9,794 nt of DNA from the IMG/VR virus record IMGVR_UViG_2609459845_000003, one strand, 5' to 3'. Below the pieces are notes generated by a model, which searched no databases, was not told the origin of the DNA, and saw only the letters and a program-made list of their open reading frames with translations. Numbering within the stretch: position 1 is the first letter of the stretch; every line of letters begins with the position of its first letter. Positions 7 to 9,794 of the stretch are shown in pieces. The stretch comes from a virus (taxonomy: Duplodnaviria; Heunggongvirae; Uroviricota; Caudoviricetes). The position numbers and the translations under genes are program-made.

Positions 7-1335
7 CTATGATATGCGCTGAAATAATCCTGCCTGTCTGATACCCGGAGATGATGTCCATAGCATCGGACCACATGCACGCCACGTGCCCGGTAAACGG
101 GTCTCCCCCACATTACCGGAAGCAACCAGGGGAGTACCATCCGAAAGGCAACATGCAGACAGTGATGAGCCGGCAATGGCTGAGCCCGGTGCCATATCCC
201 CCGAATAACTCGTCGCATAATATGCCGCAAGGACAAAAGAACCGACACCAAACAGTCCGCTGTCAGGACTTCCTGACGGTCCCTGAGGTCCTGCCGGACC
301 TGCGGCTCCCGTATCTCCTTTTGGCCCCTGAGGCCCTGCCTGACCTGCGGCTCCCGTATCCCCTTTTGGCCCCTGTGGTCCTGCCGGGCCTGCAGCTCCC
401 GTATCTCCCTTTGGCCCCTGAGGTCCTGCCGGACCTGCGGCTCCCGTATCTCCTTTTGGCCCCTGAGGTCCTGCCGGGCCTGCAGCTCCCGTATCTCCCT
501 TTGGCCCCTGAGGTCCTGCCGGACCTGCGGCTCCCGTATCTCCTTTTGGCCCCTGAGGTCCTGCCGGGCCTGCAGCTCCCGTATCTCCCTTTGGCCCCTG
601 AGGTCCTGCCGGACCTGCGGCTCCCGTATCTCCTTTTGGCCCCTGAGGCCCTGCCTGACCTGCGGCTCCCGTATCCCCTTTTGGCCCCTGAGGCCCTGCC
701 GGGCCTGCGGCTCCCGTATCCCCTTTTGGCCCCTGAAGCCCTGCCGGGCCTGTATCCCCCTTGTCGCCCTTCGGTCCCAGTGGTCCGCCCGGATCGCCCT
801 GCTCACCTTTCGGACCTGTATCCCCCTTATCGCCCTTGTCACCTTTATCCCCTTTCGGCCCCGGTGGCCCTGCCGGGCCTGTATCGCCCTTGTCCCCCTT
901 CTGTCCCTGTGGACCAGTTGCTCCGGTGTCGCCTTTCAGTCCCTGTGGCCCCACGGCAGTTTCGGCTTTCTCAGCAGCTTCTCGCGCCCTGCGCACAGCC
1001 TCATCCGCCGCCGCTTCCAGCTTCTTCAGTGCATCAGGATAATACGCTGCATCCGTTTCACGGAGCAGAAAGGCATTCAGGGTGCCCGGTTCGTCGTCGG
1101 CCATGACATCAATCTCGCCGGCGCATGCCGGCTGACGACCTTCCACGCACAAGGTCACACGATAACGCCCCGGCTCAACCTGCATGCTGTAACTGCCCGT
1201 TTCGCCTGGCTGGTGCTCTGCCACCGTGGTGACTATCACCGTCTCACTCGTTCGCGTGGCTTTCAGCTCTATGGTGCAGTCCGGTACCGGTTTTCCTGTA
1301 CCATCCTTCAGCACACCTGAAATCTGTACTGACAT
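7..1335 (-). CDS. stf: Side tail fibre protein (Stf-like) with a lambda-Stf-type N-terminal domain, a ~232-residue collagen-like Gly-X-Y shaft and an 82-residue C-terminal tip
   Basis: The N-terminus [28 protein letters not shown]... resembles the lambda Stf / prophage tail-fibre N-terminal domain. Residues 129-360 are uninterrupted G-X-Y triplets ([16 protein letters not shown]...). The ATG at 1333-1335 is preceded by a G-rich Shine-Dalgarno. The tail-fibre assembly gene expected downstream would lie left of the window. Confidence 0.85.
301..750. repeat. Ten tandem direct repeats of a 45-bp unit inside stf, with degenerate copies extending across roughly 256-951
   Basis: Read directly from the sequence: unit TGCGGCTCCCGTATCTCCTTTTGGCCCCTGAGGTCCTGCCGGGCC and close variants at 301, 346, 391 ... 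706. Units 3-8 alternate between two variants, giving a 90-bp higher-order period. Each unit encodes 15 residues (five Gly-X-Y triplets) on the minus strand. Confidence 0.95.
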
Positions 1336-2108
1336 ATTCCCCCCACAAAAAAGCCCACCAGAACCGGCGGGCTGTCATAACTCTGTGTTACCTGGCTATG
1401 GTAGTTCACCGTCATCTGCTGACCACCAAACTGCTCCGCATCCACCTGCATCCCCACAATGGCCGTGTTCGGGTAGCACTGTTTCACATCGATGATTTCG
1501 GTGTATGACGACCACAGCGTTCTGTTCTGCAGCTGGTCCGTGGTGCTGTCCGCCGTCTCCCTGACCATCCGGATGTTAAAGGGGCGGGGAGGCAGATTAT
1601 CCAGAATCACCGAGGCCAGGAACTGTGAGGTGGTCTTGCCGTTAATGGTGACATCCTTTTCTGTCACCCAGTTACCGTTACGCTGTAACTGAATCAGCAG
1701 ACGGACAGAGGACGGATTACGGTCACCCTTTGACGTGGTCTCCACCAGTGACTGCACCCCGAAGGTCACCCGCAGGCGGTCAATGTTCGCTGACGTAATG
1801 GTGCGTGTTACCGGTTTTGCCCTGGTCACTTCGACACCCAGTACAGTTTCAGAGCCGGAGGACTCAAAGCCTTCCGGTGGTGTCTGCTCCTGCTCCCCGG
1901 CACGCCAGACCGCGGTCACACCGTGTATCACGGGATTACCGTCCGTGTCCGTCAGCGGGGTTTTGTTCACCAGAATACTCTGCAGGCTTTTCACCGGGCC
2001 TTCTATCGGTCCCTCACCAATCGCATCAATCACGCTCATCATCTGCGTGGATTTGAGATTGTCTTTCGCCTCACGAGGCGTGTGTGCCTTACCGCCACCT
2101 TTTCCCAT
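1308..2108 (-). pseudogene. J: Tail tip / host-specificity protein J-like, N-terminal fragment only (~237 homologous codons of an expected ~1130)
   Basis: MGKGGGKAHTPREAKDNLKSTQMMSVIDAIGEGPIEGP...TLWSSYTEIIDVKQCYPNTAIVGMQVDAEQFGGQQ matches the lambda gpJ N-terminus. Homology is lost after ...NYH (about 1398), and the frame then runs through the stf upstream intergenic region to a stop at 1308. A good Shine-Dalgarno (GGGGAAGG) precedes the ATG at 2106-2108. Confidence 0.85.
1346..1373 (-). terminator. Rho-independent terminator (minus strand) immediately upstream of stf
   Basis: On the minus strand AGCCCGCC pairs with GGTGGGCT (one G-U pair) across the loop GGTTCT, followed by TTTTTT. It lies 10-40 nt upstream of the stf start codon. 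Confidence 0.45.
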
Positions 2109-2211
2109 ACAGCCTTCCCCTGAATAAATTAACCGCCACTTGCCATTCCGTACAGAAGTCGGATATCCTTCGCCCGAAAAGCATGAAACACATTTCTGCC
2201 ATGCTAAAGAG

Positions 2212-2247
2212 AAACCCCGGTATCAGCAGATACCGGGGTTTTCTTTC
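2212..2247. terminator. Strong GC-rich hairpin with T-rich tracts on both sides, a possible bidirectional intrinsic terminator
   Basis: CCCCGGTATC (2215-2224) pairs with GATACCGGGG (2229-2238) across a 4-nt loop, extendable by AAA/TTT. It is followed by TTTTCTTTC on the plus strand and TTTCTCTTT on the minus strand. Confidence 0.5.
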
Positions 2248-2313
2248 ATGCCCACCGATAATCCTGTTGGTTAAAACCGGTAATGGCATAAAAATTCTGA
2301 ATATCTTCACATT

Positions 2314-2341
2314 TTCACAAACTGACCGTGGCGCGTATAAT
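2314..2341 (+). promoter_or_regulatory. Candidate sigma70 promoter pointing rightward, antisense to the phage late genes
   Basis: TTCACA (2314-2319), a 16-nt spacer, then a perfect TATAAT (2336-2341), with an AT-rich tract upstream (2291-2313) that could act as an UP element. Confidence 0.4.
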
Positions 2342-2347
2342 TTCTCT

Positions 2348-2446
2348 GCGTTAATTTTTTTGTCGTGATATAAGAATAATTCCTTACACTTAATCTTCGT
2401 AACTCTCCCGCAGTTCCTGTCCGCGATCACTGCGGGATTTTTTTAT
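2348..2446 (+). ncRNA. Hypothetical small non-coding transcript (~100 nt) bounded by the candidate promoter and an intrinsic terminator
   Basis: There is no ATG-initiated ORF between the predicted start site (~2348) and the terminator T-tract (2438-2444). The interval lies in a 343-bp AT-rich gap between I and J. This is structural inference only; I recognise no homolog. Confidence 0.25.
2406..2446 (+). terminator. Rho-independent terminator, plus-strand orientation
   Basis: A 9-bp stem, TCCCGCAGT (2406-2414) pairing with ACTGCGGGA (2429-2437), encloses a 14-nt loop and is followed by TTTTTTT (2438-2444). The opposite strand has no T-tract after the stem. Confidence 0.5.
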
Positions 2447-2451
2447 TCTTT

Positions 2452-3117
2452 TTACCCCTGCCGCCCGATAACCACGACCTTTCCGCCCCCGCCTTCATCA
2501 CGGGTGCTGATGTCCTGGGATATACGGCGGGAGCCAACCAGCATTTCCCCGTAAGGCACCGGCATCGGGTTCCCCTGGGCAATCATGTTATCCAGCGAGG
2601 AAAAGTACGTGTTCTGTCTGCCGTTATCCGTTGCGCGGTAATCCGGTGTTTTTGCCTTCGGGGCCAGCATCTGGGCCACACCGCCCAGTATCATGCTGGC
2701 ACCCAGTGAAAACAGCATCGTGGTGGCAGAAAAACCACCGGCACTCAGGGCTGTACCCCATAACGCCATCGAGCCTCCGGCCGTGAAGAAAGAGCCCACG
2801 ATGGCTGCCGCCCCCAACACAATCTGCAGTCCACCCTTTCCGGCCCCGGCCAGTCGCGGCACAATGTGGATGACCGTTCCCTCACCCAGCTGTTCGTGAA
2901 GGCGGGCGTACACCACCTCCGGTGCCGTGTCTTCACCGGCAATACGTATCTGGTACCAGCCTTCGTTCATCTGAAGGCGAAAGCCCGGCATCTGCATCGA
3001 CAGGGCGCGAATGGCTTCCGCTGCCGTGTTCACATACAGGCTGAGGCGGCGGCCAAATCGTTGTAAATCCCCGTGGTTGCCCACGGTTGAGCCAGAGATA
3101 ACAGCTTCCACCATCAT
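2452..3117 (-). pseudogene. I: Tail tip assembly protein I-like; the native N-terminus (~20 codons) is missing and replaced by FII-derived sequence
   Basis: From ...GDLQRFGRRLSLYVNTAAEAIRAL... through ...FSLGASMILGGVAQMLAPKAKTPDYRATDNGRQNTYFSSLDNMIAQGN...GKVVVIGR the ORF resembles lambda gpI (ubiquitin-like tail assembly protein). The first ~15 codons (MMVEAVISGSTVGNH) are FII DNA read in a different frame. Confidence 0.7.
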
Positions 3118-3403
3118 CCGGCGAAACCCGGTCTATCCAGAAGTTTTCCTCACCGATGGTCAGCGTGTCTCCACGCCGCAGTTGCCGCACATCATCAGTC
3201 CGGACAAACAGGGACGGGCTGGAGCCTTCAACGCGCACGCCCTGTCCGGCATAGCTGATATTTTCAGGGTCATCAAAAACACCACGTATTACTGCGCCGG
3301 ACTGCTCACCGGATGTCATGGTGGCTGACGTTCCCATGTACCCGCGTATCGTTTCATCGGCGCGGGCAATGGCAGCATCGAACAGGTTATCGAAATCAGC
3401 CAC
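2933..3403 (-). pseudogene. FII: Head completion / head-tail connector FII-like; the C-terminus is replaced by out-of-frame read-through into the I region
   Basis: MADFDNLFDAAIARADETIRGYMGTSAT...DRVSPDDGGSCYLWLNRG matches lambda gpFII (117 aa as recalled) to about residue 108. In place of the short native C-terminus the frame runs on for ~48 codons (QPRGFTTIWPPPQPV...) across sequence that encodes the I protein in another frame. Confidence 0.75.
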
Positions 3404-3414
3404 AGCGCCTCCCG

Positions 3415-3810
3415 TTATTGCATTCTGGCCAGGCCGCGCTCTGTCATTTCAGCTGCCACACCGGCAGAGACACGGAACGCCGTTCCCGGCAGCACAAATG
3501 CCACAGTGTCATCCCGCGTGGCGTGAAGTGCATCAGTATGCAGCGTCACCAGTGCCACGACCGTGACCAGAGCAGCCGTATCAATCACGGTATCCGGCTG
3601 CGCTGATACCACCTCATTTTCATGTCCGGTCAGCGCATTTTCCGGGCTGACAGATGTGTCCTGACCGGCAGCGTCATCCGTGTCATCAAGCTCCTCTTCC
3701 AGCTCTGCCACACGGAGCACCAGTTCTTCTTTCGTCCCCGTCAGGCTGACATCACGGTTCAGTTGCTCACCCAGCACCTGAAGACGGGCAATCAGTTCAT
3801 CTTTCGTCAT
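3415..3810 (-). CDS. FI: DNA-packaging protein FI-like, 131 aa
   Basis: MTKDELIARLQVLGEQLNRDVSLTGTKEELVLRVAELEEELDDTDD...AEMTERGLARMQ matches lambda gpFI. The start is the ATG at 3808-3810 with GGAGGAG immediately upstream on the minus strand. The ORF-track start at 3849 is an upstream in-frame extension. Confidence 0.9.
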   Translation of the reverse strand: MTKDELIARLQVLGEQLNRDVSLTGTKEELVLRVAELEEELDDTDDAAGQDTSVSPENALTGHENEVVSAQPDTVIDTAALVTVVALVTLHTDALHATRDDTVAFVLPGTAFRVSAGVAAEMTERGLARMQ

Positions 3811-3851
3811 GGACTCCTCCACAGAGAGAAAATGGCCCCGAAGGGCCATGA

Positions 3852-4877
3852 TTACGCCAGTTGTACGGACACGAACGCATCAGGATCAGCCAGCAGCATC
3901 AGCGGTGCTGACTGAATCATGGTGAACTCACGCGCCGGATCGCCGGTGGTCACCCAGTTTTTCGGGTAGCGGGCAGAGGCGTTAATACCTTCGCGCTGTG
4001 CGTCCGCATCCTGAATGCAGCCATAGGTGCGCAGACCGCGTGCCTGAGTGTTCCCCAGCACCATCGTGTTGTCCGGCAGGAAGTTCTTTTTGACGTCGTT
4101 TTCCACGTACTGTCCGGAATACACGACGATCGCCGTATCGCCATACATCCCCTTATAGGACACCGCTTCGCCCAGGTCTTTTACCGCTGTCTCCAGCTCG
4201 GAATTAGAGCCGCGACGGGTATCCAGCTTCTCCTTGACGGCTTTGAAGGAACGGAACAGCGCCCAGCCTTTCGGATCAAACACGATGATATTCACCACGC
4301 CGCTGGCGTTCAGCGCGTAGGCTTCGATATCGTCGGTCGGGTCATACGTGGACTTGTCACGCTTGCTCCACTCCGTGCCGCCGGACTGCGTGATGTTGTT
4401 CGCCGCACTGCGGCCCATATCCACCTCAACCGGATCGAAGGCTTCACCGGTCATGGTGTATTTGCCCTTGAGCACGGCAGAAACGGCCTGCATCTCTTCG
4501 ACCTGAGCAATGGCCAGCTCTTCGTCACGCATGTTCTGCATGATGATGCGACGGCGGCGGTAAGTCGGGTCCGCCAGATTCTGCGGATCTTCATCCGGCA
4601 GGCGACGCAGGGTCATCTGCGGATTCACTTCATGCTTGGGTTTGACATATCCCGGCGTAAATTCAGAGGTGGAGCCGCCACGGGAACGGATAACCTCACC
4701 GGAAACAATCGGCGAAACGTACAGCGCCATGTTTACCAGTCCCGGAATTTGTGAGAGATAGACTTTCTCCGTAGTGAAGGGATAGCTCTCACGGAAAAAG
4801 AGACGCAGAAACAGCGGATCAAACTTAAATTTCTGCTCATTTGCCGCCAGCAGCTGGGCGGTTGTGTACATCGACAT
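3852..4877 (-). CDS. E: Major capsid protein (lambda gpE-like, HK97 fold), 341 aa
   Basis: MSMYTTAQLLAANEQKFKFDPLFLRLFFRESYPFTTEKVYLSQIPGLVNMALYVSPIVSGEVIRSRGG...FVSVQLA is near-identical to lambda gpE with the same length. The 55-nt D-E spacer matches lambda. Confidence 0.95.
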   Translation of the reverse strand: MSMYTTAQLLAANEQKFKFDPLFLRLFFRESYPFTTEKVYLSQIPGLVNMALYVSPIVSGEVIRSRGGSTSEFTPGYVKPKHEVNPQMTLRRLPDEDPQNLADPTYRRRRIIMQNMRDEELAIAQVEEMQAVSAVLKGKYTMTGEAFDPVEVDMGRSAANNITQSGGTEWSKRDKSTYDPTDDIEAYALNASGVVNIIVFDPKGWALFRSFKAVKEKLDTRRGSNSELETAVKDLGEAVSYKGMYGDTAIVVYSGQYVENDVKKNFLPDNTMVLGNTQARGLRTYGCIQDADAQREGINASARYPKNWVTTGDPAREFTMIQSAPLMLLADPDAFVSVQLA

Positions 4878-4932
4878 AAAAAAATCCCGTAAAAAAAGCC
4901 GAACAGGCGGCCTTTAGTGATGAAGGGTAAAG

Positions 4933-5265
4933 TTAAACGATGCTGATTGCCGTTCCGGCAAACGCGGTCCGTTTTTTCGTCTCGTCGCTGGCAGCCTCCG
5001 GCCAGAGCACATCCTCATAACGGAACGTGCCGGACTTGTAGAACGTCAGCGTGGTGCTGGTCTGGTCAGCAGCAACCGCAAGAATGCCAACGGCAGCACC
5101 GTCGGTGGTGCCATCCCACGCAACCAGCTTACGGGTGGAGGTGTCCAGCATCAGCGGGGTCATTGCAGGCGCTTTCGCACTCAATCCGCCGGGCGCGGTT
5201 GCGGTATGAGCCGGGTCACTGTTGCCCAGCGGCTGGTAATGGGTAAAGGTTTCTTTGCTCGTCAT
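4933..5265 (-). CDS. D: Head decoration protein (lambda gpD-like), 110 aa
   Basis: [43 protein letters not shown]...FAGTAISIV is near-identical to lambda gpD. The true start is the ATG at 5263-5265, two codons inside the ORF-track start. It sits 9 nt after the C stop, as in lambda. Confidence 0.92.
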
Positions 5266-5274
5266 AAACATCCC

Positions 5275-5880
5275 TTACACTGGTGTGTTCAGCAAATCGT
5301 TAACGGCATCAGATGCCAGGTTACCTGCAGCCAGCGGTGCCGGTGCCCCCTGCATCAGACGATCCAGCGCAGTATCACTGCGCGCCTGTGCACTCTGTGG
5401 TGCTGCGGCCAGAATGCGGCGGGCCGTTTCCACGGTCATACCGGGGGGTTCTGCCAGCACGCGGGCCTGTTCTTCGCGTCCGTGAGCCTCCTCACAGTTG
5501 AGGATCCCCATAATGCGGCTGTTTTCTGCCGCAACCGCAGCGTTGATCTGCGCGTTCACGTCCGGCTGCGCCGCGCTGGCGTTTTCGCCCTCCATCGCTG
5601 GCACCACGCCAGTAACGTCAGCCTGCGAAGCAGTGGCTGAAACAGTTGTTGATTGAGTCTCTTTGGTCATTCGCCCTCCTGAGAGACGGGATTTACGTGC
5701 ATCCAGTGCATCACGCATGATGGTGATCGCATCGGTACTGTTAACAAGTTCATCAGCCAGTCCGGCATCAATGGCCTCCTGACCGCTGTACACTGCAGCC
5801 TCGGTATCCAGCACAGCCTGCACGGACAGGCCGGTATATGCCGACACCTTCTGTGCAAACATCCGGCGGGTTGCATCCAT
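5275..5880 (-). CDS. nu3: Scaffolding protein Nu3-like, an in-frame nested gene sharing the C-terminal ~201 codons of C
   Basis: An internal ATG at 5878-5880 in the C frame begins MDATRRMFAQKVSAYTGLSVQ..., which corresponds to the lambda Nu3 start as recalled. The nested C/Nu3 arrangement is established for lambda. Confidence 0.7.
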   Translation of the reverse strand: MDATRRMFAQKVSAYTGLSVQAVLDTEAAVYSGQEAIDAGLADELVNSTDAITIMRDALDARKSRLSGGRMTKETQSTTVSATASQADVTGVVPAMEGENASAAQPDVNAQINAAVAAENSRIMGILNCEEAHGREEQARVLAEPPGMTVETARRILAAAPQSAQARSDTALDRLMQGAPAPLAAGNLASDAVNDLLNTPV

Positions 5881-6594
5881 CCGGGACTGCAGTGTTTCCC
5901 GGACATCATCCGGTAGATGGCTGTAGGGGTTGCCATCCACCTTATGGCTGCCGCTGTAAATCAGCGTGATTTCCACGCCCTGTTTCTCCAGCGCAGCACC
6001 GTAATTACTGTGAGCCATCATGACGCCGATGGAGCCTGTCCGGGCGGTCTGCGTGACCAGACGCCGGGAGGCGGCACTGGCAAGCAGCTGACCTGCGCTG
6101 CAGTTCATGTCATTGGCCAGCGCCCATACCGGCTTTATGTCACGCACACGGGCGATGATGTCAGCGCAGTCAAATGCCCCTGCCACCATTCCGCCGGGCG
6201 TGTCCATATCCAGCAGAATGCCGTCCACCATCGGGTCGCTGGCAGCCTGTTGCAGACGGGCGATAATGCCGTTGTAACCAGTCATCCCCGAATACGGCTG
6301 CAGCGCCCGCGTCCGGCAGACCAGCGTGCCGGAAACCGGCAGCACGGCGATGCCGTTCATGACCTGATAACTGCGGGCCTGTCGTGGTCCGTCATCATTA
6401 ACGGATAACGCCAGCTTCGCGGGTGCCTCTCCGGCAGTCAGGCTGTCACCGGACACCGCATCCGTCAGGCGGCTGATCCCAAGCTGGCCTGCAAGCGCAC
6501 AAAAGAAAACCCGCGCATAGGCGGGTTCAAGCATAAGCGGCTCATTAAAGGCCATGCTGGCAATATGCGGGAGATTACGCAGCTCTGCTGTCAC
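5275..6594 (-). CDS. C: Capsid assembly/maturation protease (lambda gpC-like, S49 peptidase family), 439 aa
   Basis: (V/M)TAELRNLPHIASMAFNEPLMLEPAYARVFFCALAGQLGIS... matches lambda gpC throughout. The start is GTG at 6592-6594, preceded by a strong Shine-Dalgarno (AGGAGGAG on the minus strand, 6597-6606). It overlaps the B stop by 20 nt as in lambda. The ORF track extends further upstream to a non-homologous start. Confidence 0.9.
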   Translation of the reverse strand: MTAELRNLPHIASMAFNEPLMLEPAYARVFFCALAGQLGISRLTDAVSGDSLTAGEAPAKLALSVNDDGPRQARSYQVMNGIAVLPVSGTLVCRTRALQPYSGMTGYNGIIARLQQAASDPMVDGILLDMDTPGGMVAGAFDCADIIARVRDIKPVWALANDMNCSAGQLLASAASRRLVTQTARTGSIGVMMAHSNYGAALEKQGVEITLIYSGSHKVDGNPYSHLPDDVRETLQSRMDATRRMFAQKVSAYTGLSVQAVLDTEAAVYSGQEAIDAGLADELVNSTDAITIMRDALDARKSRLSGGRMTKETQSTTVSATASQADVTGVVPAMEGENASAAQPDVNAQINAAVAAENSRIMGILNCEEAHGREEQARVLAEPPGMTVETARRILAAAPQSAQARSDTALDRLMQGAPAPLAAGNLASDAVNDLLNTPV

Positions 6595-7747
6595 TCTTCT
6601 CCTCCTCTGTTGATTGTCGCAGTCCGGATTCAAATGCCGCAGCCGCCCAGGCGGGCGGTTTAAGACCGGCTGCACGGCGCTCCATCGTTTCACGGACCTG
6701 CTGGGCAAAAATTTCCTGATAGTCGTCACCGCGTTTTGCGCACTCTTTCTCGTAGGTACTCAGTCCGGCTTCTATCAGCATCACCGCTTCCTGTACTTCT
6801 TTCAGACCATCGATGGCCATACGACCGGAGCCTATCCAGTCACAGTTCCCCCAGGCGCTGCGGGCTTCCTGAAAGCTGAAACGCGCTTTTGAAGGTAACG
6901 TCACCACGCGGCGAACGATGGCCTCTTCCAGCCAGCACAGAAACATCTGGCTCGCCTGACGGGATGCGACGAATTTTCGCCGCCCCATAAAGTACGCCCA
7001 CGACTCGTTCGCACTGGCCCGTGCCGTGGAATAGCTCATCTGGGCGTAATTCCGGGAAAGCTGCTCATACGAGACACCCAGCCCGGCAGCGATATACCGC
7101 AACAGTGACTGCTCAAACACGGAGTAGCCGTTATCCGTATCCTGAGCCGTCTGCAGGTTCAGTGAGTCACCCGGCATCAGGTGCGGCACTTTTGCGCCTC
7201 CCAGCCGAACCGGTGCTGCGGCGTAATACGCGGCAATTTCACCAATCCAGCCGGTCAGCTTGTCCCGCTGCTCCTGACTGTTCGCGCCCAGAATAAAATC
7301 CATCGCTGACTGCGTATCCAGCTCACTCTCAATGGTGGCGGCATACATCGCCTTCACAATGGCGCTCTGCAGCTGCGTGTTCTGCAGCGTGTCGAGCATC
7401 TTCATCTGCTCCATCACGCTGTAAAACACATTTGCACCGCGGGTCTGCCCGTCCTCCACGGGTTCAAAAACGTGAATGAACGAGGCGCGCCCGCCGGGTA
7501 ACTCACGGGGTATCCATGTCCATTTCTGCGGCATCCAGCCAGGATAGCCGTCCTCGCTGACGTAATATCCCAGCGCCGCACCGCTGTCATTAATCTGCAC
7601 ACCGGCACGGCAGTTCCGGCTGTCGCCGGTATTGTTCGGGTTGCTGATGCGCTTCGGGCTGACCATCCGGAACTGTGTCCGGAAAAGCCACGACGGACTG
7701 GTATCCCAGGTGGCCTGAACGAACAGTTCACCGTTAAAGGCGTGCAT
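6575..7747 (-). pseudogene. B: Portal protein (lambda gpB-like) lacking roughly the N-terminal 143 residues
   Basis: The ORF matches lambda gpB from MHAFNGELFVQATWDTS... through to the C-terminus ...ESGLRQSTEEEKSDSRAA. Upstream of that internal ATG (7745-7747) the frame holds only 8 unrelated codons back to a TTG at 7771, then the A stop codon. Only 15 bp separate A from this ORF, so there is no room for the missing portal N-terminus. Confidence 0.85.
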
Positions 7748-7790
7748 GCAGTGCCGCACGGGCAGCGGCAAGTTCTTCCTGTCGCGTCAT
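7734..7790 (-). pseudogene. W: Remnant of head-tail joining gene W: only the first ~15 codons, then out-of-frame sequence and a stop
   Basis: An ATG at 7788-7790 overlaps the A stop in the ATGA arrangement and encodes MTRQEELAAARAALH, the lambda gpW N-terminus as recalled. It then reads ARL-stop instead of continuing as DLMTGKRV..., so the rest of W is missing. Confidence 0.7.
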
Positions 7791-9712
7791 TCATCCTCTC
7801 CGGATAAGGCACGGGCGTAATCTGCCAGTGTTTTCTTGTTGGTTGCTGCACCATCCTCTTCCTTCAGGCTCGCCAGCAGTGCACTGAGATCCAGCTGCCA
7901 GCGGGAAATACTGATGCGCAGCGCCGCCAGCGCATAAACGAAGCAGTCGAGCGCCTCATTGCGTCGTTTTTTGCTGTCCCACAGTATTTTTTTCCTGCCA
8001 TCCACCCATTTTTCGACCTGCTCTTCAGCCGTCAGCTGCTGCGCTTCGGTCAGATCAAAAATATCCGGGTTATTCGGGAAGTGAACGGCACCGGGAAGCG
8101 GTTCATCCCCTTCCGGCGTCAGTGTGAAGCGGTTATAAATCTGCTCTTTCGCGGTATCCGTACCGATTTCGGTAAGGTAAACCCCGTTTTTGTTTCGCTT
8201 ACGTGGCATGCTGGCCACCGGCTTTCCGTAGACGGATGCCCCTTTAATGGGGATCACCCGGAACAGCCCATGTTTTTTCGAGCGTTCATACACGATGGTC
8301 GGGTCAATCCCGCCAGTATCCCAGCAGATACGGGATACCGACATTTCTGCACCATTCCGGCGGGTATAGGTTTTATTGATGGCCTCATCCACACGCAGCA
8401 GCGTCTGTTCATCGTCGTGGCGGCCCATAATAATCTGCCGATCAATCAGCCAGCTTTCCTCACCCGGCCCCCATCCCCATACGCGCATTTCGTAGCGATC
8501 CAGCTGGGAGTCGATACCGGCGGTCAGGTAAGCCACACGGTCAGGAACGGGCGCTGAATAATGCTCTTTCCGCTCTGCCATCACTTCAGCATCCGGACGT
8601 TCGCCAATTTTCGCCTCCCACGTCTCACCGAGCGTGGTGTTTACGAAGGTTTTACGTTTTCCCGTATCCCCTTTCGTTTTCATCCAGTCTTTGACAATCT
8701 GCACCCAGGTGGTGAACGGGCTGTACGCTGTCCAGATGTGAAAGGTCACACTGTCAGGTGGCTCAATCTCTTCACCGGATGACGAAAACCAGAGAATGCC
8801 ATCACGGGTCCAGATCCCGGTCTTTTCGCAGATATAACGGGCATCAGTAAAGTCCAGCTCCTGCTGGCAGATGACGCAGGCATTATGCTCGCAGAGATAA
8901 AACACGCTGGAGGGGTCATCCGGCGTCCATTTGAGGCCAAACGGCGTCTCTTTGTCGCCAAATTTAAGATACTGCTCCTCCCCGCAGTGCGGGCAGGCAA
9001 CATGAAAACGCATAAAATGCGGGGATTCACTGGCTGCACGCTCAATCTGGCAGGTGCCTCTCACTTTGGGCGTGGAGCCACGGATGGACTTTGGCCAGAC
9101 CGAGCCTTCAATACGCTTATCGCCCAGGAACGTCGGAGAGCCTTCCTGTTCAATATCCTCATCAAAGGCAGCAAGTTCATCATAACCCGCCACATCCACT
9201 GACTTTTCACGGTAGTTTTTTGCCGCTTTACCGCCCAGGCACCAGAAGCCACGACCATTGGAAAAACGCTTCATGGTGAGCGTGTTATCCCGGTGCTTTT
9301 TGCCATACCACGGGGCCAGCGCCAGCAGCGACGGAATATCACGAATAGTCGGTTCAACGTGGGTTTTCATAAAGTTCTCGGCATCACCATCCGTCGGCAA
9401 CCAGATAAGGGTGTTGCGCTGCTTATGCTCTATGAAGTAGGCATAAACACCCAGCAGCATTTTGGAATAACCAACACGGGCAGACTTCACCACATTCACC
9501 TCACGGATGTAGTCGCTGCCCATCGCATTCATGATGGCCCGCTGAAAGGGCAGTGTTTCCCAGCGCCCTTCCTGGTATGCGGATTCTTTCGGGAGATAGT
9601 AATTGGCATCCGCCCATTCAACGGCGGTCTGTGGCTCCGGCCTGAACAGTGAGCGAAGCCCGGCGCGGACAAAATGCCGCAGCCTGTTAACCTGACTGTT
9701 CGATATATTCAC
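7787..9712 (-). CDS. A: Terminase large subunit (lambda gpA-like), apparently full length at 641 aa
   Basis: The 641-aa ORF (MNISNSQVNRLRHFVRAGLRSLFRPEPQTAVEWADANYYLPKESAYQEGRW... ending ...ADYARALSGEDE) is near-identical to lambda gpA as recalled and has the same length. The start is GTG at 9710-9712, the stop TGA at 7787-7789. Confidence 0.95.
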   Translation of the reverse strand: MNISNSQVNRLRHFVRAGLRSLFRPEPQTAVEWADANYYLPKESAYQEGRWETLPFQRAIMNAMGSDYIREVNVVKSARVGYSKMLLGVYAYFIEHKQRNTLIWLPTDGDAENFMKTHVEPTIRDIPSLLALAPWYGKKHRDNTLTMKRFSNGRGFWCLGGKAAKNYREKSVDVAGYDELAAFDEDIEQEGSPTFLGDKRIEGSVWPKSIRGSTPKVRGTCQIERAASESPHFMRFHVACPHCGEEQYLKFGDKETPFGLKWTPDDPSSVFYLCEHNACVICQQELDFTDARYICEKTGIWTRDGILWFSSSGEEIEPPDSVTFHIWTAYSPFTTWVQIVKDWMKTKGDTGKRKTFVNTTLGETWEAKIGERPDAEVMAERKEHYSAPVPDRVAYLTAGIDSQLDRYEMRVWGWGPGEESWLIDRQIIMGRHDDEQTLLRVDEAINKTYTRRNGAEMSVSRICWDTGGIDPTIVYERSKKHGLFRVIPIKGASVYGKPVASMPRKRNKNGVYLTEIGTDTAKEQIYNRFTLTPEGDEPLPGAVHFPNNPDIFDLTEAQQLTAEEQVEKWVDGRKKILWDSKKRRNEALDCFVYALAALRISISRWQLDLSALLASLKEEDGAATNKKTLADYARALSGEDE

Positions 9713-9794
9713 TCAGCAACCCCGGTATCAGTTCATCCAGCGCGGCTGCTTTGTTCATGGCTTTGATGATATCCCGTTTCAGGAAATCAACATG
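9687..9794 (-). CDS. nu1: Terminase small subunit (Nu1-like), C-terminal fragment; the 5' end lies beyond the right edge of the window
   Basis: The minus-strand frame entering at 9794 translates to ...KAMNKAAALDELIPGLLSEYIEQSG-stop, matching the lambda Nu1 C-terminus as I recall it. The stop (9687-9689) lies inside the start of A, reproducing the lambda Nu1/A overlap. Confidence 0.8.
   Translation of the reverse strand, partial: HVDFLKRDIIKAMNKAAALDELIPGLLSEYIEQSG

Follow-up and report, generated by a model that had tools for sequence, protein, structure and literature searches.

A 6,969-bp gap between FII and I in the late operon of a lambda-like prophage remnant from commensal E. coli

Gene content of the window and the FII-to-I junction

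The window analyzed here is a stretch of 9,794 bp, and all 9,794 bases correspond to the entire draft contig JNRH01000099.1 (assembly GCA_000704585.1) in reverse orientation. The host is a commensal E. coli. A lambda-like prophage contributes its late operon to the contig, and the ORF list assigns all phage genes of the window to the minus strand. Genes were surveyed by tblastn with the proteins of lambda and of the closest intact prophage, which lies beside potB in E. coli S1-CAM-01-A (L003) and was used as the undeleted reference, against the window at E<=1e-3, and Pfam profile coverage was considered alongside. Apart from the genes at the junction, which are listed further below, the following genes were found:

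Minus strand, contig end: nu1, last 35 codons only, with the rest beyond the contig end (tblastn with lambda)
9712-7790, minus strand: A, large terminase subunit, complete, 641 aa, 99.2% to lambda (tblastn)
Minus strand: portal gene B, residues 144-533 only, 99.0% to lambda (tblastn)
Minus strand: C, D, E, and FI, full-length, 96.4%, 98.2%, 97.9%, and 87.1% to lambda, respectively (tblastn)
Minus strand: J, lambda residues 7-237 matched at 79.7% (tblastn)
7-1335, minus strand: side tail fibre gene stf, lambda-Stf-like N-terminal domain and collagen repeats (Pfam phage_tail_N, Collagen)

The lambda-type order of the head genes is kept, colinear and at 87-99% tblastn identity, except for the deleted W and 5' portion of B, and the Pfam families agree with a head gene set of this type. 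By its head genes, their order, and their homology, the element is a lambda-like (Lambdavirus-type) prophage. A contaminating lambda cloning vector, as could be suspected from head genes at 96-99% to lambda, was ruled out by sister contigs that reach the E. coli chromosome at potB, and it is also contradicted by the non-lambda early genes on sister contigs. The tail proteins Z, U, V, G, T, H, M, and L of lambda and of the S1-CAM-01-A prophage gave no tblastn match at E<=1e-3 in the entire window, and neither did W and lom from the same two sources.

In blastn, the window falls into three segments of the S1-CAM-01-A prophage: positions 1394-3075 correspond to 15943-17624 (97.3%), 3073-7748 to 24591-29256 (98.5%), and 7745-9794 to 29842-31891 (99.9%). 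Between the first two, which meet between FII and I, 6,969 bp are missing relative to this prophage, equivalent to ~6.9 kb in lambda coordinates (roughly 7942-14829). The join itself is a short feature:

3073-3075, given on the plus strand: first deletion junction, 3-bp microhomology GTG common to both parental flanks (blastn overlap, three-way alignment)

In the three-way alignment of the window with both flanks of the reference, identity to the K/I flank extends up to ...CCCCGTG, and identity to the FII flank starts from GTGGTTGCC... onward. The endpoints thus lie at FII codon 110/111 on one side and in the K/I overlap on the other, at K codon 233 and I codon 19/20. Beyond these 3 bp, FII and the K/I overlap share no homology, and no repeat, insertion sequence (IS), or att-like site was found at the junction. 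An earlier note on this DNA, made from the letters alone, had placed a loss of roughly 7 kb between FII and I at 3050-3120. This agrees with the mapped join, and the comparison with lambda FII, K, and I that it proposed put both edges at window 3074/3075 by tblastn. Its place for the end of FII homology lay two codons from the mapped one, with the exact end at codon 110 and not codon ~108, and its start of I homology at about GDLQRFGRR was off by one residue, as the match begins at H15 of the ORF.

Around the join, the remains of three genes and two stretches of foreign reading frame overlap one another:

3074-3403, minus strand: FII (head-tail joining protein), codons 1-110 (tblastn; Pfam PF05354 Phage_attach, positions 4-96 of 99)
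2933-3072, minus strand: run-on of the FII frame through K'/I DNA, 46 unrelated residues, stop at 2933-2935 (translation)
3030-3075, minus strand: remnant of K (C40 peptidase, tail tip assembly), last 14 codons TGIYNDLAAASACM and stop
2452-3075, minus strand: I (tail tip assembly protein), codons 20-226 and stop (tblastn; Pfam PF06805 Lambda_tail_I, positions 9-83 of 83)
3076-3117, minus strand: FII DNA read in the I frame, 14 codons MMVEAVISGSTVGN with an ATG-ATG start (ORF list, comparison with L003)

Of the 117 residues of FII, 1-110 are retained (94.5% to lambda and 100% to the S1-CAM-01-A prophage by tblastn), so that the protein is kept to ...LNRGQP and has lost its last 7 residues, PAVNRRR. 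Together with the run-on, this N-terminal part forms a 156-aa fusion ORF at 2933-3403. For K, residues 232-247 of the S1-CAM-01-A protein (the last 16) were matched by tblastn, while lambda K remained unmatched. In window 3075-2455, I matched residues 20-226 of the S1-CAM-01-A protein at 98.6% and residues 20-212 of the lambda protein at 67.7%; its native ATG and first 19 codons (MATTNAFCLASPPLARICL) are gone, and its frame is kept from HGDLQRFGRR... onward. No Shine-Dalgarno sequence is visible upstream of the ATGATG at which the I-remnant ORF now starts. The earlier statement that the whole tail-shaft module from Z to K is absent consequently holds for Z to L by tblastn, but K has left its last 14 codons behind. 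Similarly, of the parts said to be kept, the J fragment is present, but I is not intact, having lost its start and codons 1-19.

FII, K, and I are read in three different frames and, with 6,969 being 3 x 2,323, these relative frames are unchanged by the deletion. As the three genes occupy separate frames, FII runs on for 46 junk codons, and as the I frame happens to be open for 14 codons upstream of the join, a second ORF arises that overlaps the first. The two ORFs (2933-3403 and 2452-3117) share 185 nt in different frames, which bears out the overlap of two reading frames on the same DNA noticed before. This overlap is an accidental by-product of the deletion and not a designed one. An in-frame FII-I or FII-K fusion protein was ruled out on the same grounds, with three genes in three frames.

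The annotation of I deserves a comment of its own. E. coli records start the gene at an internal GTG (193 aa); the sites compared are window 3031-3033 and 17582/17681 of the S1-CAM-01-A prophage. A lambda-like ATG lies 33 codons upstream of this GTG, overlapping the end of K and giving a protein of 226 aa. The N-terminus read from it is conserved between the S1-CAM-01-A prophage and lambda gpI (MATTNAFCLASPPLARICLHGDLQRFGRR vs MAATHTLPLASPGMARICLYGDLQRFGRR), and Stx-phage records annotate I in the long form of 681 nt. The automated 193-aa call in such prophages is therefore probably 33 codons too short, and this short start hides the truncation of I in the window. As a warning to annotators, both the 156-aa "tail attachment domain protein" and the 221-aa ORF in the I frame are deletion artefacts.

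Further junctions and recurrence in sister isolates

Two more junctions of the same type interrupt the window:

7745-7748: second deletion junction, 4-bp microhomology CATG, 589 bp missing (blastn, junction alignment)
1394-1398: third deletion junction, ~2-bp microhomology TA, ~3.4 kb missing relative to L001 (blastn, junction alignment)

The 589-bp deletion removed everything from W codon 15 to portal codon 143 and fused W codon 14 to portal codon 144; in the affected region (6575-7790), only portal residues 144-533 were matched by tblastn, and the Pfam profile Phage_portal_2 was covered from 110 to 354 of 354. Since W and portal codons 1-143 are deleted, heads would not be buildable either, despite full-length A, C, D, E, and FI. 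At the third junction, J is missing from codon ~239 to its end together with lom. Only J residues 1-250 were matched by tblastn, and the J fragment (1308-2108) abuts the lom-stf intergenic region just upstream of stf; its ORF reads on into the beginning of the side-fibre gene.

All three junctions have 2-4 shared bases (3, 4, and ~2 bp), which makes them short-homology deletions, and none shows an insertion sequence, a long repeat, or an att-like site. In total, Z, U, V, G, T, H, M, L, W, and lom are gone, and K, I, J, and the portal gene are truncated, as is characteristic of a defective prophage. Judged by its genes, the element lacks a tail tube, a tape measure, a tip complex, the receptor-binding part of J, the head-tail adaptor W, and a complete portal. 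The view of the earlier note that the element cannot make a tail is supported by the deletion of the genes from Z to K between FII and I, and we infer from lambda genetics that the element would not produce virions at all.

The same junction was found again in other assemblies. Seven contigs (8 to 86 kb), each from a separate NCBI draft assembly, encode the identical 156-aa fusion product; six of these assemblies have accessions from one series (JNR*) and may share project and pipeline. The junction is internal in all seven contigs. The source names include E. coli 3-073-06_S3_C1 and 2-011-08_S3_C2, hence at least two strain names. In a collection of ~15 billion proteins, the product forms a singleton cluster at 90% identity, among 5.8 billion. 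None of 5,426 complete E. coli genomes spans the junction in a megablast search with the 1.3-kb region 2300-3600 of the window, whereas each half of the region is present in ~3,900 of them. With a 200-bp query centered on the junction, the complete E. coli genomes again gave no spanning match, and the hits were split into 1-100 (annotated as tail assembly protein and C40 peptidase) and 98-200 (annotated as head-tail joining protein). An exact scan of the GTDB species representatives with the 25-mer of the junction gave no match. The absence from complete genomes shows that the junction is rare, not that it is an artefact.

Four of the contigs (L006-L009, of which L007 is the window) extend far enough to include the other two junctions as well, and these are also common to them. 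Outside the collagen repeat, the sister copies are only 0-3 substitutions apart, and at this distance there is no signal of selection on the remaining genes in either direction. As a step of decay, the deletion is recent and specific to one lineage, which is small and near-clonal. The only appreciable variation among the sister copies is repeat slippage in the side fibre: the collagen-like (G-X-Y) repeat at ~280-950 consists of 45-bp units whose copy number varies among near-identical isolates, with products of 397, 412, 427, and 442 aa.

Two sister contigs, L004 (3028-4065) and L005 (1-1264), carry an extra deletion that joins a methyltransferase region to the last 62 codons of E (window 4025/4026), and nu1, A, the portal gene, C, D, and most of E are gone. 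This loss of head genes fits progressive decay. On L004, the remnant is bordered by ninE-ybcO-rusA-Q on one side and by a ykgJ-like gene, potB, potA, pepT, roxA, and phoQ on the other; the potB-phoQ flank is 99.9% to E. coli chromosomes, so that the remnant is joined to chromosomal DNA. The far end of L005 shows an integrase followed by genes of the Form_Nir_trans, MlaA, and Toluene_X families and not potB. This flank is probably the yfdC-mlaA-fadL region, and the change of neighbors hints at a further rearrangement or another insertion context.

A separate observation concerns the gap between I and J (2109-2451). A candidate small RNA of ~100 nt lies at 2285-2446 on the plus strand, in antisense orientation to the tail operon, with the following predicted elements:

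2314-2341, plus strand: predicted promoter, TTCACA-16-TATAAT, 11/12 positions of consensus
Ending at ~2445, plus strand: predicted intrinsic terminator, CCCGCAG...CTGCGGG followed by T7

A promoter near consensus and an intrinsic terminator together predict an RNA of ~100 nt. In an alignment of the gap (A1) from Stx1, Stx2, and other lambdoid phages, down to ~70% identity, the -35 block is invariant and the -10 hexamer always keeps A2 and T6. The stretch TTAATCTTC inside the transcript and the 3' arm of the terminator, CTGCGGG with its T-run, are invariant as well. The 5' arm CCCGCAG occurs in every sequence but is shifted by indels and hence not invariant by column. An Rfam scan of the window and of the I-J gap matched no family. 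AgvB and AsxR were ruled out as this RNA due to their other prophage position. [quoted passage not shown]

Origin of the junction and alternative readings

Taken together, the junction is very probably a scar: in a commensal E. coli lineage, a lambda-like prophage integrated beside potB would have lost 6,969 bp of its late operon in one deletion. One event between FII codon 110/111 and the K/I overlap, via the shared GTG, would have eliminated Z, U, V, G/T, H, M, and L, left K with only its last 14 codons, trimmed FII by 7 residues, and taken the start and 19 codons of I. As the endpoints share only GTG, we infer illegitimate and not homologous or site-specific recombination. RecA-independent deletion in E. 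coli proceeds by slipped mispairing during replication or by microhomology-mediated end joining, and either replication slippage or such end joining could have produced the scar. Two further deletions at short homologies took W and the portal N-terminus in one case and the J C-terminus and lom in the other, so that neither heads nor a tail tip would be made, and the element is a cryptic prophage in decay. In lambda, the genes of the late operon are all read from a single late transcript; thus, the remnants could still be transcribed on induction, yet no virion would be assembled.

Whether such a remnant could still serve a purpose is a different matter. The remnant keeps the A gene, a variable and intact side fibre, and presumably a cos site beyond the window, so that packaging in heads and joining to the tails of a helper are conceivable, and trans-complementation by other prophages might leave it some residual mobility. 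The remnant might accordingly be more than inert, either as an element at the very origin of a helper-packaged, helper-tailed lifestyle or as a donor of head and fibre genes for recombination with incoming phages, but we regard this as very improbable. A stronger version, in which the deletion was adaptive and the element is a functional, tail-less satellite that makes or borrows capsids and takes tails from a co-resident lambdoid helper, could point to the full-length A (641 aa), C, D, E, and FI and to capsid-forming PICIs, which are described as taking only helper tails. Passages of PMC11389934 (citing PMC2669165) that treat defective O157 prophages likewise report their packaging and transfer with helper prophages. 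However, the very parts on which a foreign tail would dock are damaged, with W gone, the portal lacking 1-143, and the FII C-terminus replaced, while K, I, and J persist as useless pieces. In sister isolates, the head genes have gone too, and the carriers form a tiny, near-clonal lineage and not a spreading family, which makes a functional satellite exceedingly improbable.

Returning to the deletion as the preferred reading, the tail-shaft module could in principle have moved elsewhere within the same prophage, as the earlier note had cautioned. The window ends in nu1 and in stf, and the whole prophage of this isolate is consequently not in view. However, sister contig L004 spans ninE-Q-methyltransferase-E'-FI-FII'-I'-J'-stf-tfa into the chromosomal flank without any tail-shaft gene, which answers the question of rearrangement versus loss in favor of loss for the isolate of L004. 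Lambdoid early regions, by their established gene order, do not normally carry tail genes either, and we hold a relocation to be scarcely conceivable.

Next to no credence is given to a hybrid without tail genes that arose by homologous or site-specific recombination between two resident prophages. Among the matches listed, the left segment is closest to O17_K12a (99.4%) and the right segment to S1-CAM-01-A (98.9%), and such different best matches indicate a mosaic ancestry; the L005 remnant, moreover, adjoins a different integrase and chromosomal flank. However, FII and the K/I overlap have no more than 3 bp in common, the junction has neither a repeat nor an att-like site, and one intact prophage, likewise located at potB, is colinear with the window on either side of the join.

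Finally, for a short contig of 9.8 kb from a draft assembly, an assembly artefact might be suspected: short reads could have been joined chimerically or a repeat collapsed, as E. coli genomes contain similar lambdoid sequence in a median of 3 copies and assemblies break up at such repeats. This objection, also raised in the earlier note, is practically excluded by the identical junction in mid-contig on seven contigs from separate assemblies, by parental flanks that share 3 bp only and thus too little for a k-mer-based misjoin, and by the two more junctions of the same type that recur in the same contigs.

The case of a deletion scar matters little beyond bookkeeping, and it opens no new question of phage biology. 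It does provide a clean instance, with precisely mapped endpoints, of a prophage decaying by short-homology deletion, in which the undeleted ancestor type survives at the same site in related strains and a sister isolate shows the next step of decay, the loss of head genes.

Comparison with known systems

The element has the same gene order and orientation as the lambda late operon (NC_001416: nu1-A-W-B-C-D-E-FI-FII-Z-U-V-G-T-H-M-L-K-I-J-lom-stf) and, in its undeleted state, shares with lambda the K/I overlap and the long start of I. Unlike lambda, the window lacks W, lom, the first 143 codons of B, and J from codon 239 onward, in addition to the ~6.9 kb that begin at FII codon 111 and reach to I codon 19. 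Compared with the head genes, I, J, and stf are more divergent from lambda (68-80%), with stf at 55% over residues 1-117 and collagen-like repeats downstream. The I-J gap measures 343 nt in the window and 60 nt in lambda.

Head genes without tail-shaft genes also bring to mind the capsid-forming PICIs (Alqurainy et al., 2023), which reportedly build their own capsids and take only the tails from a helper. These elements are further said to have intact portal/connector genes, an integrase, regulation, and a replication module of their own, and no tail remnants. By contrast, W, the portal gene, and FII are damaged in the window, and fragments of K, I, and J remain. With W deleted, the portal lacking 1-143, and the FII C-terminus replaced, the element is not a capsid-forming PICI and would hardly function as one, and the ordinary lambdoid genes ninE-ybcO-rusA-Q upstream on L004 argue for a prophage origin.

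The closest relatives are the intact prophages beside potB in S1-CAM-01-A (NZ_CP145714.1) and in 23CRST047/049 (NZ_AP045820/22), which occupy the same site with the same flanking genes as the remnant. Their junction-side DNA is 97-99.9% to the window, and the potB flank of L004 is 99.9% to 23CRST047/049, the complete genomes with the most similar flank. Unlike the window, they have the full Z-K tail module, W, a full portal gene, a full J, and lom, and they represent the ancestral state before the deletions. In the S1-CAM-01-A prophage, the C (S49 peptidase) gene at 26784-28102 is annotated as frameshifted, and this "intact" comparator may itself be defective.

In kind, the phenomenon is that of a textbook defective lambdoid prophage, an already known category and not a new type of element, although the specific deletion has apparently not been described so far. 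Sections of PMC11389934 (citing PMC6379469 and PMC2669165) describe lambdoid prophages that have become inactive through missing structural genes and persist in the chromosome. The same article counts 18 prophages in O157:H7 Sakai, the majority of them defective and some of those in structural genes, and its passages on packaging and transfer with the help of other prophages, mentioned above for O157 (citing PMC2669165), concern such defective prophages. The window element stands beside DLP12, Rac, and Qin of K-12 and the defective pool of Sakai in having lost structural genes while being retained in the chromosome; compared with these, it has no IS at its junction and represents another lineage, with other endpoints and a very recent origin.
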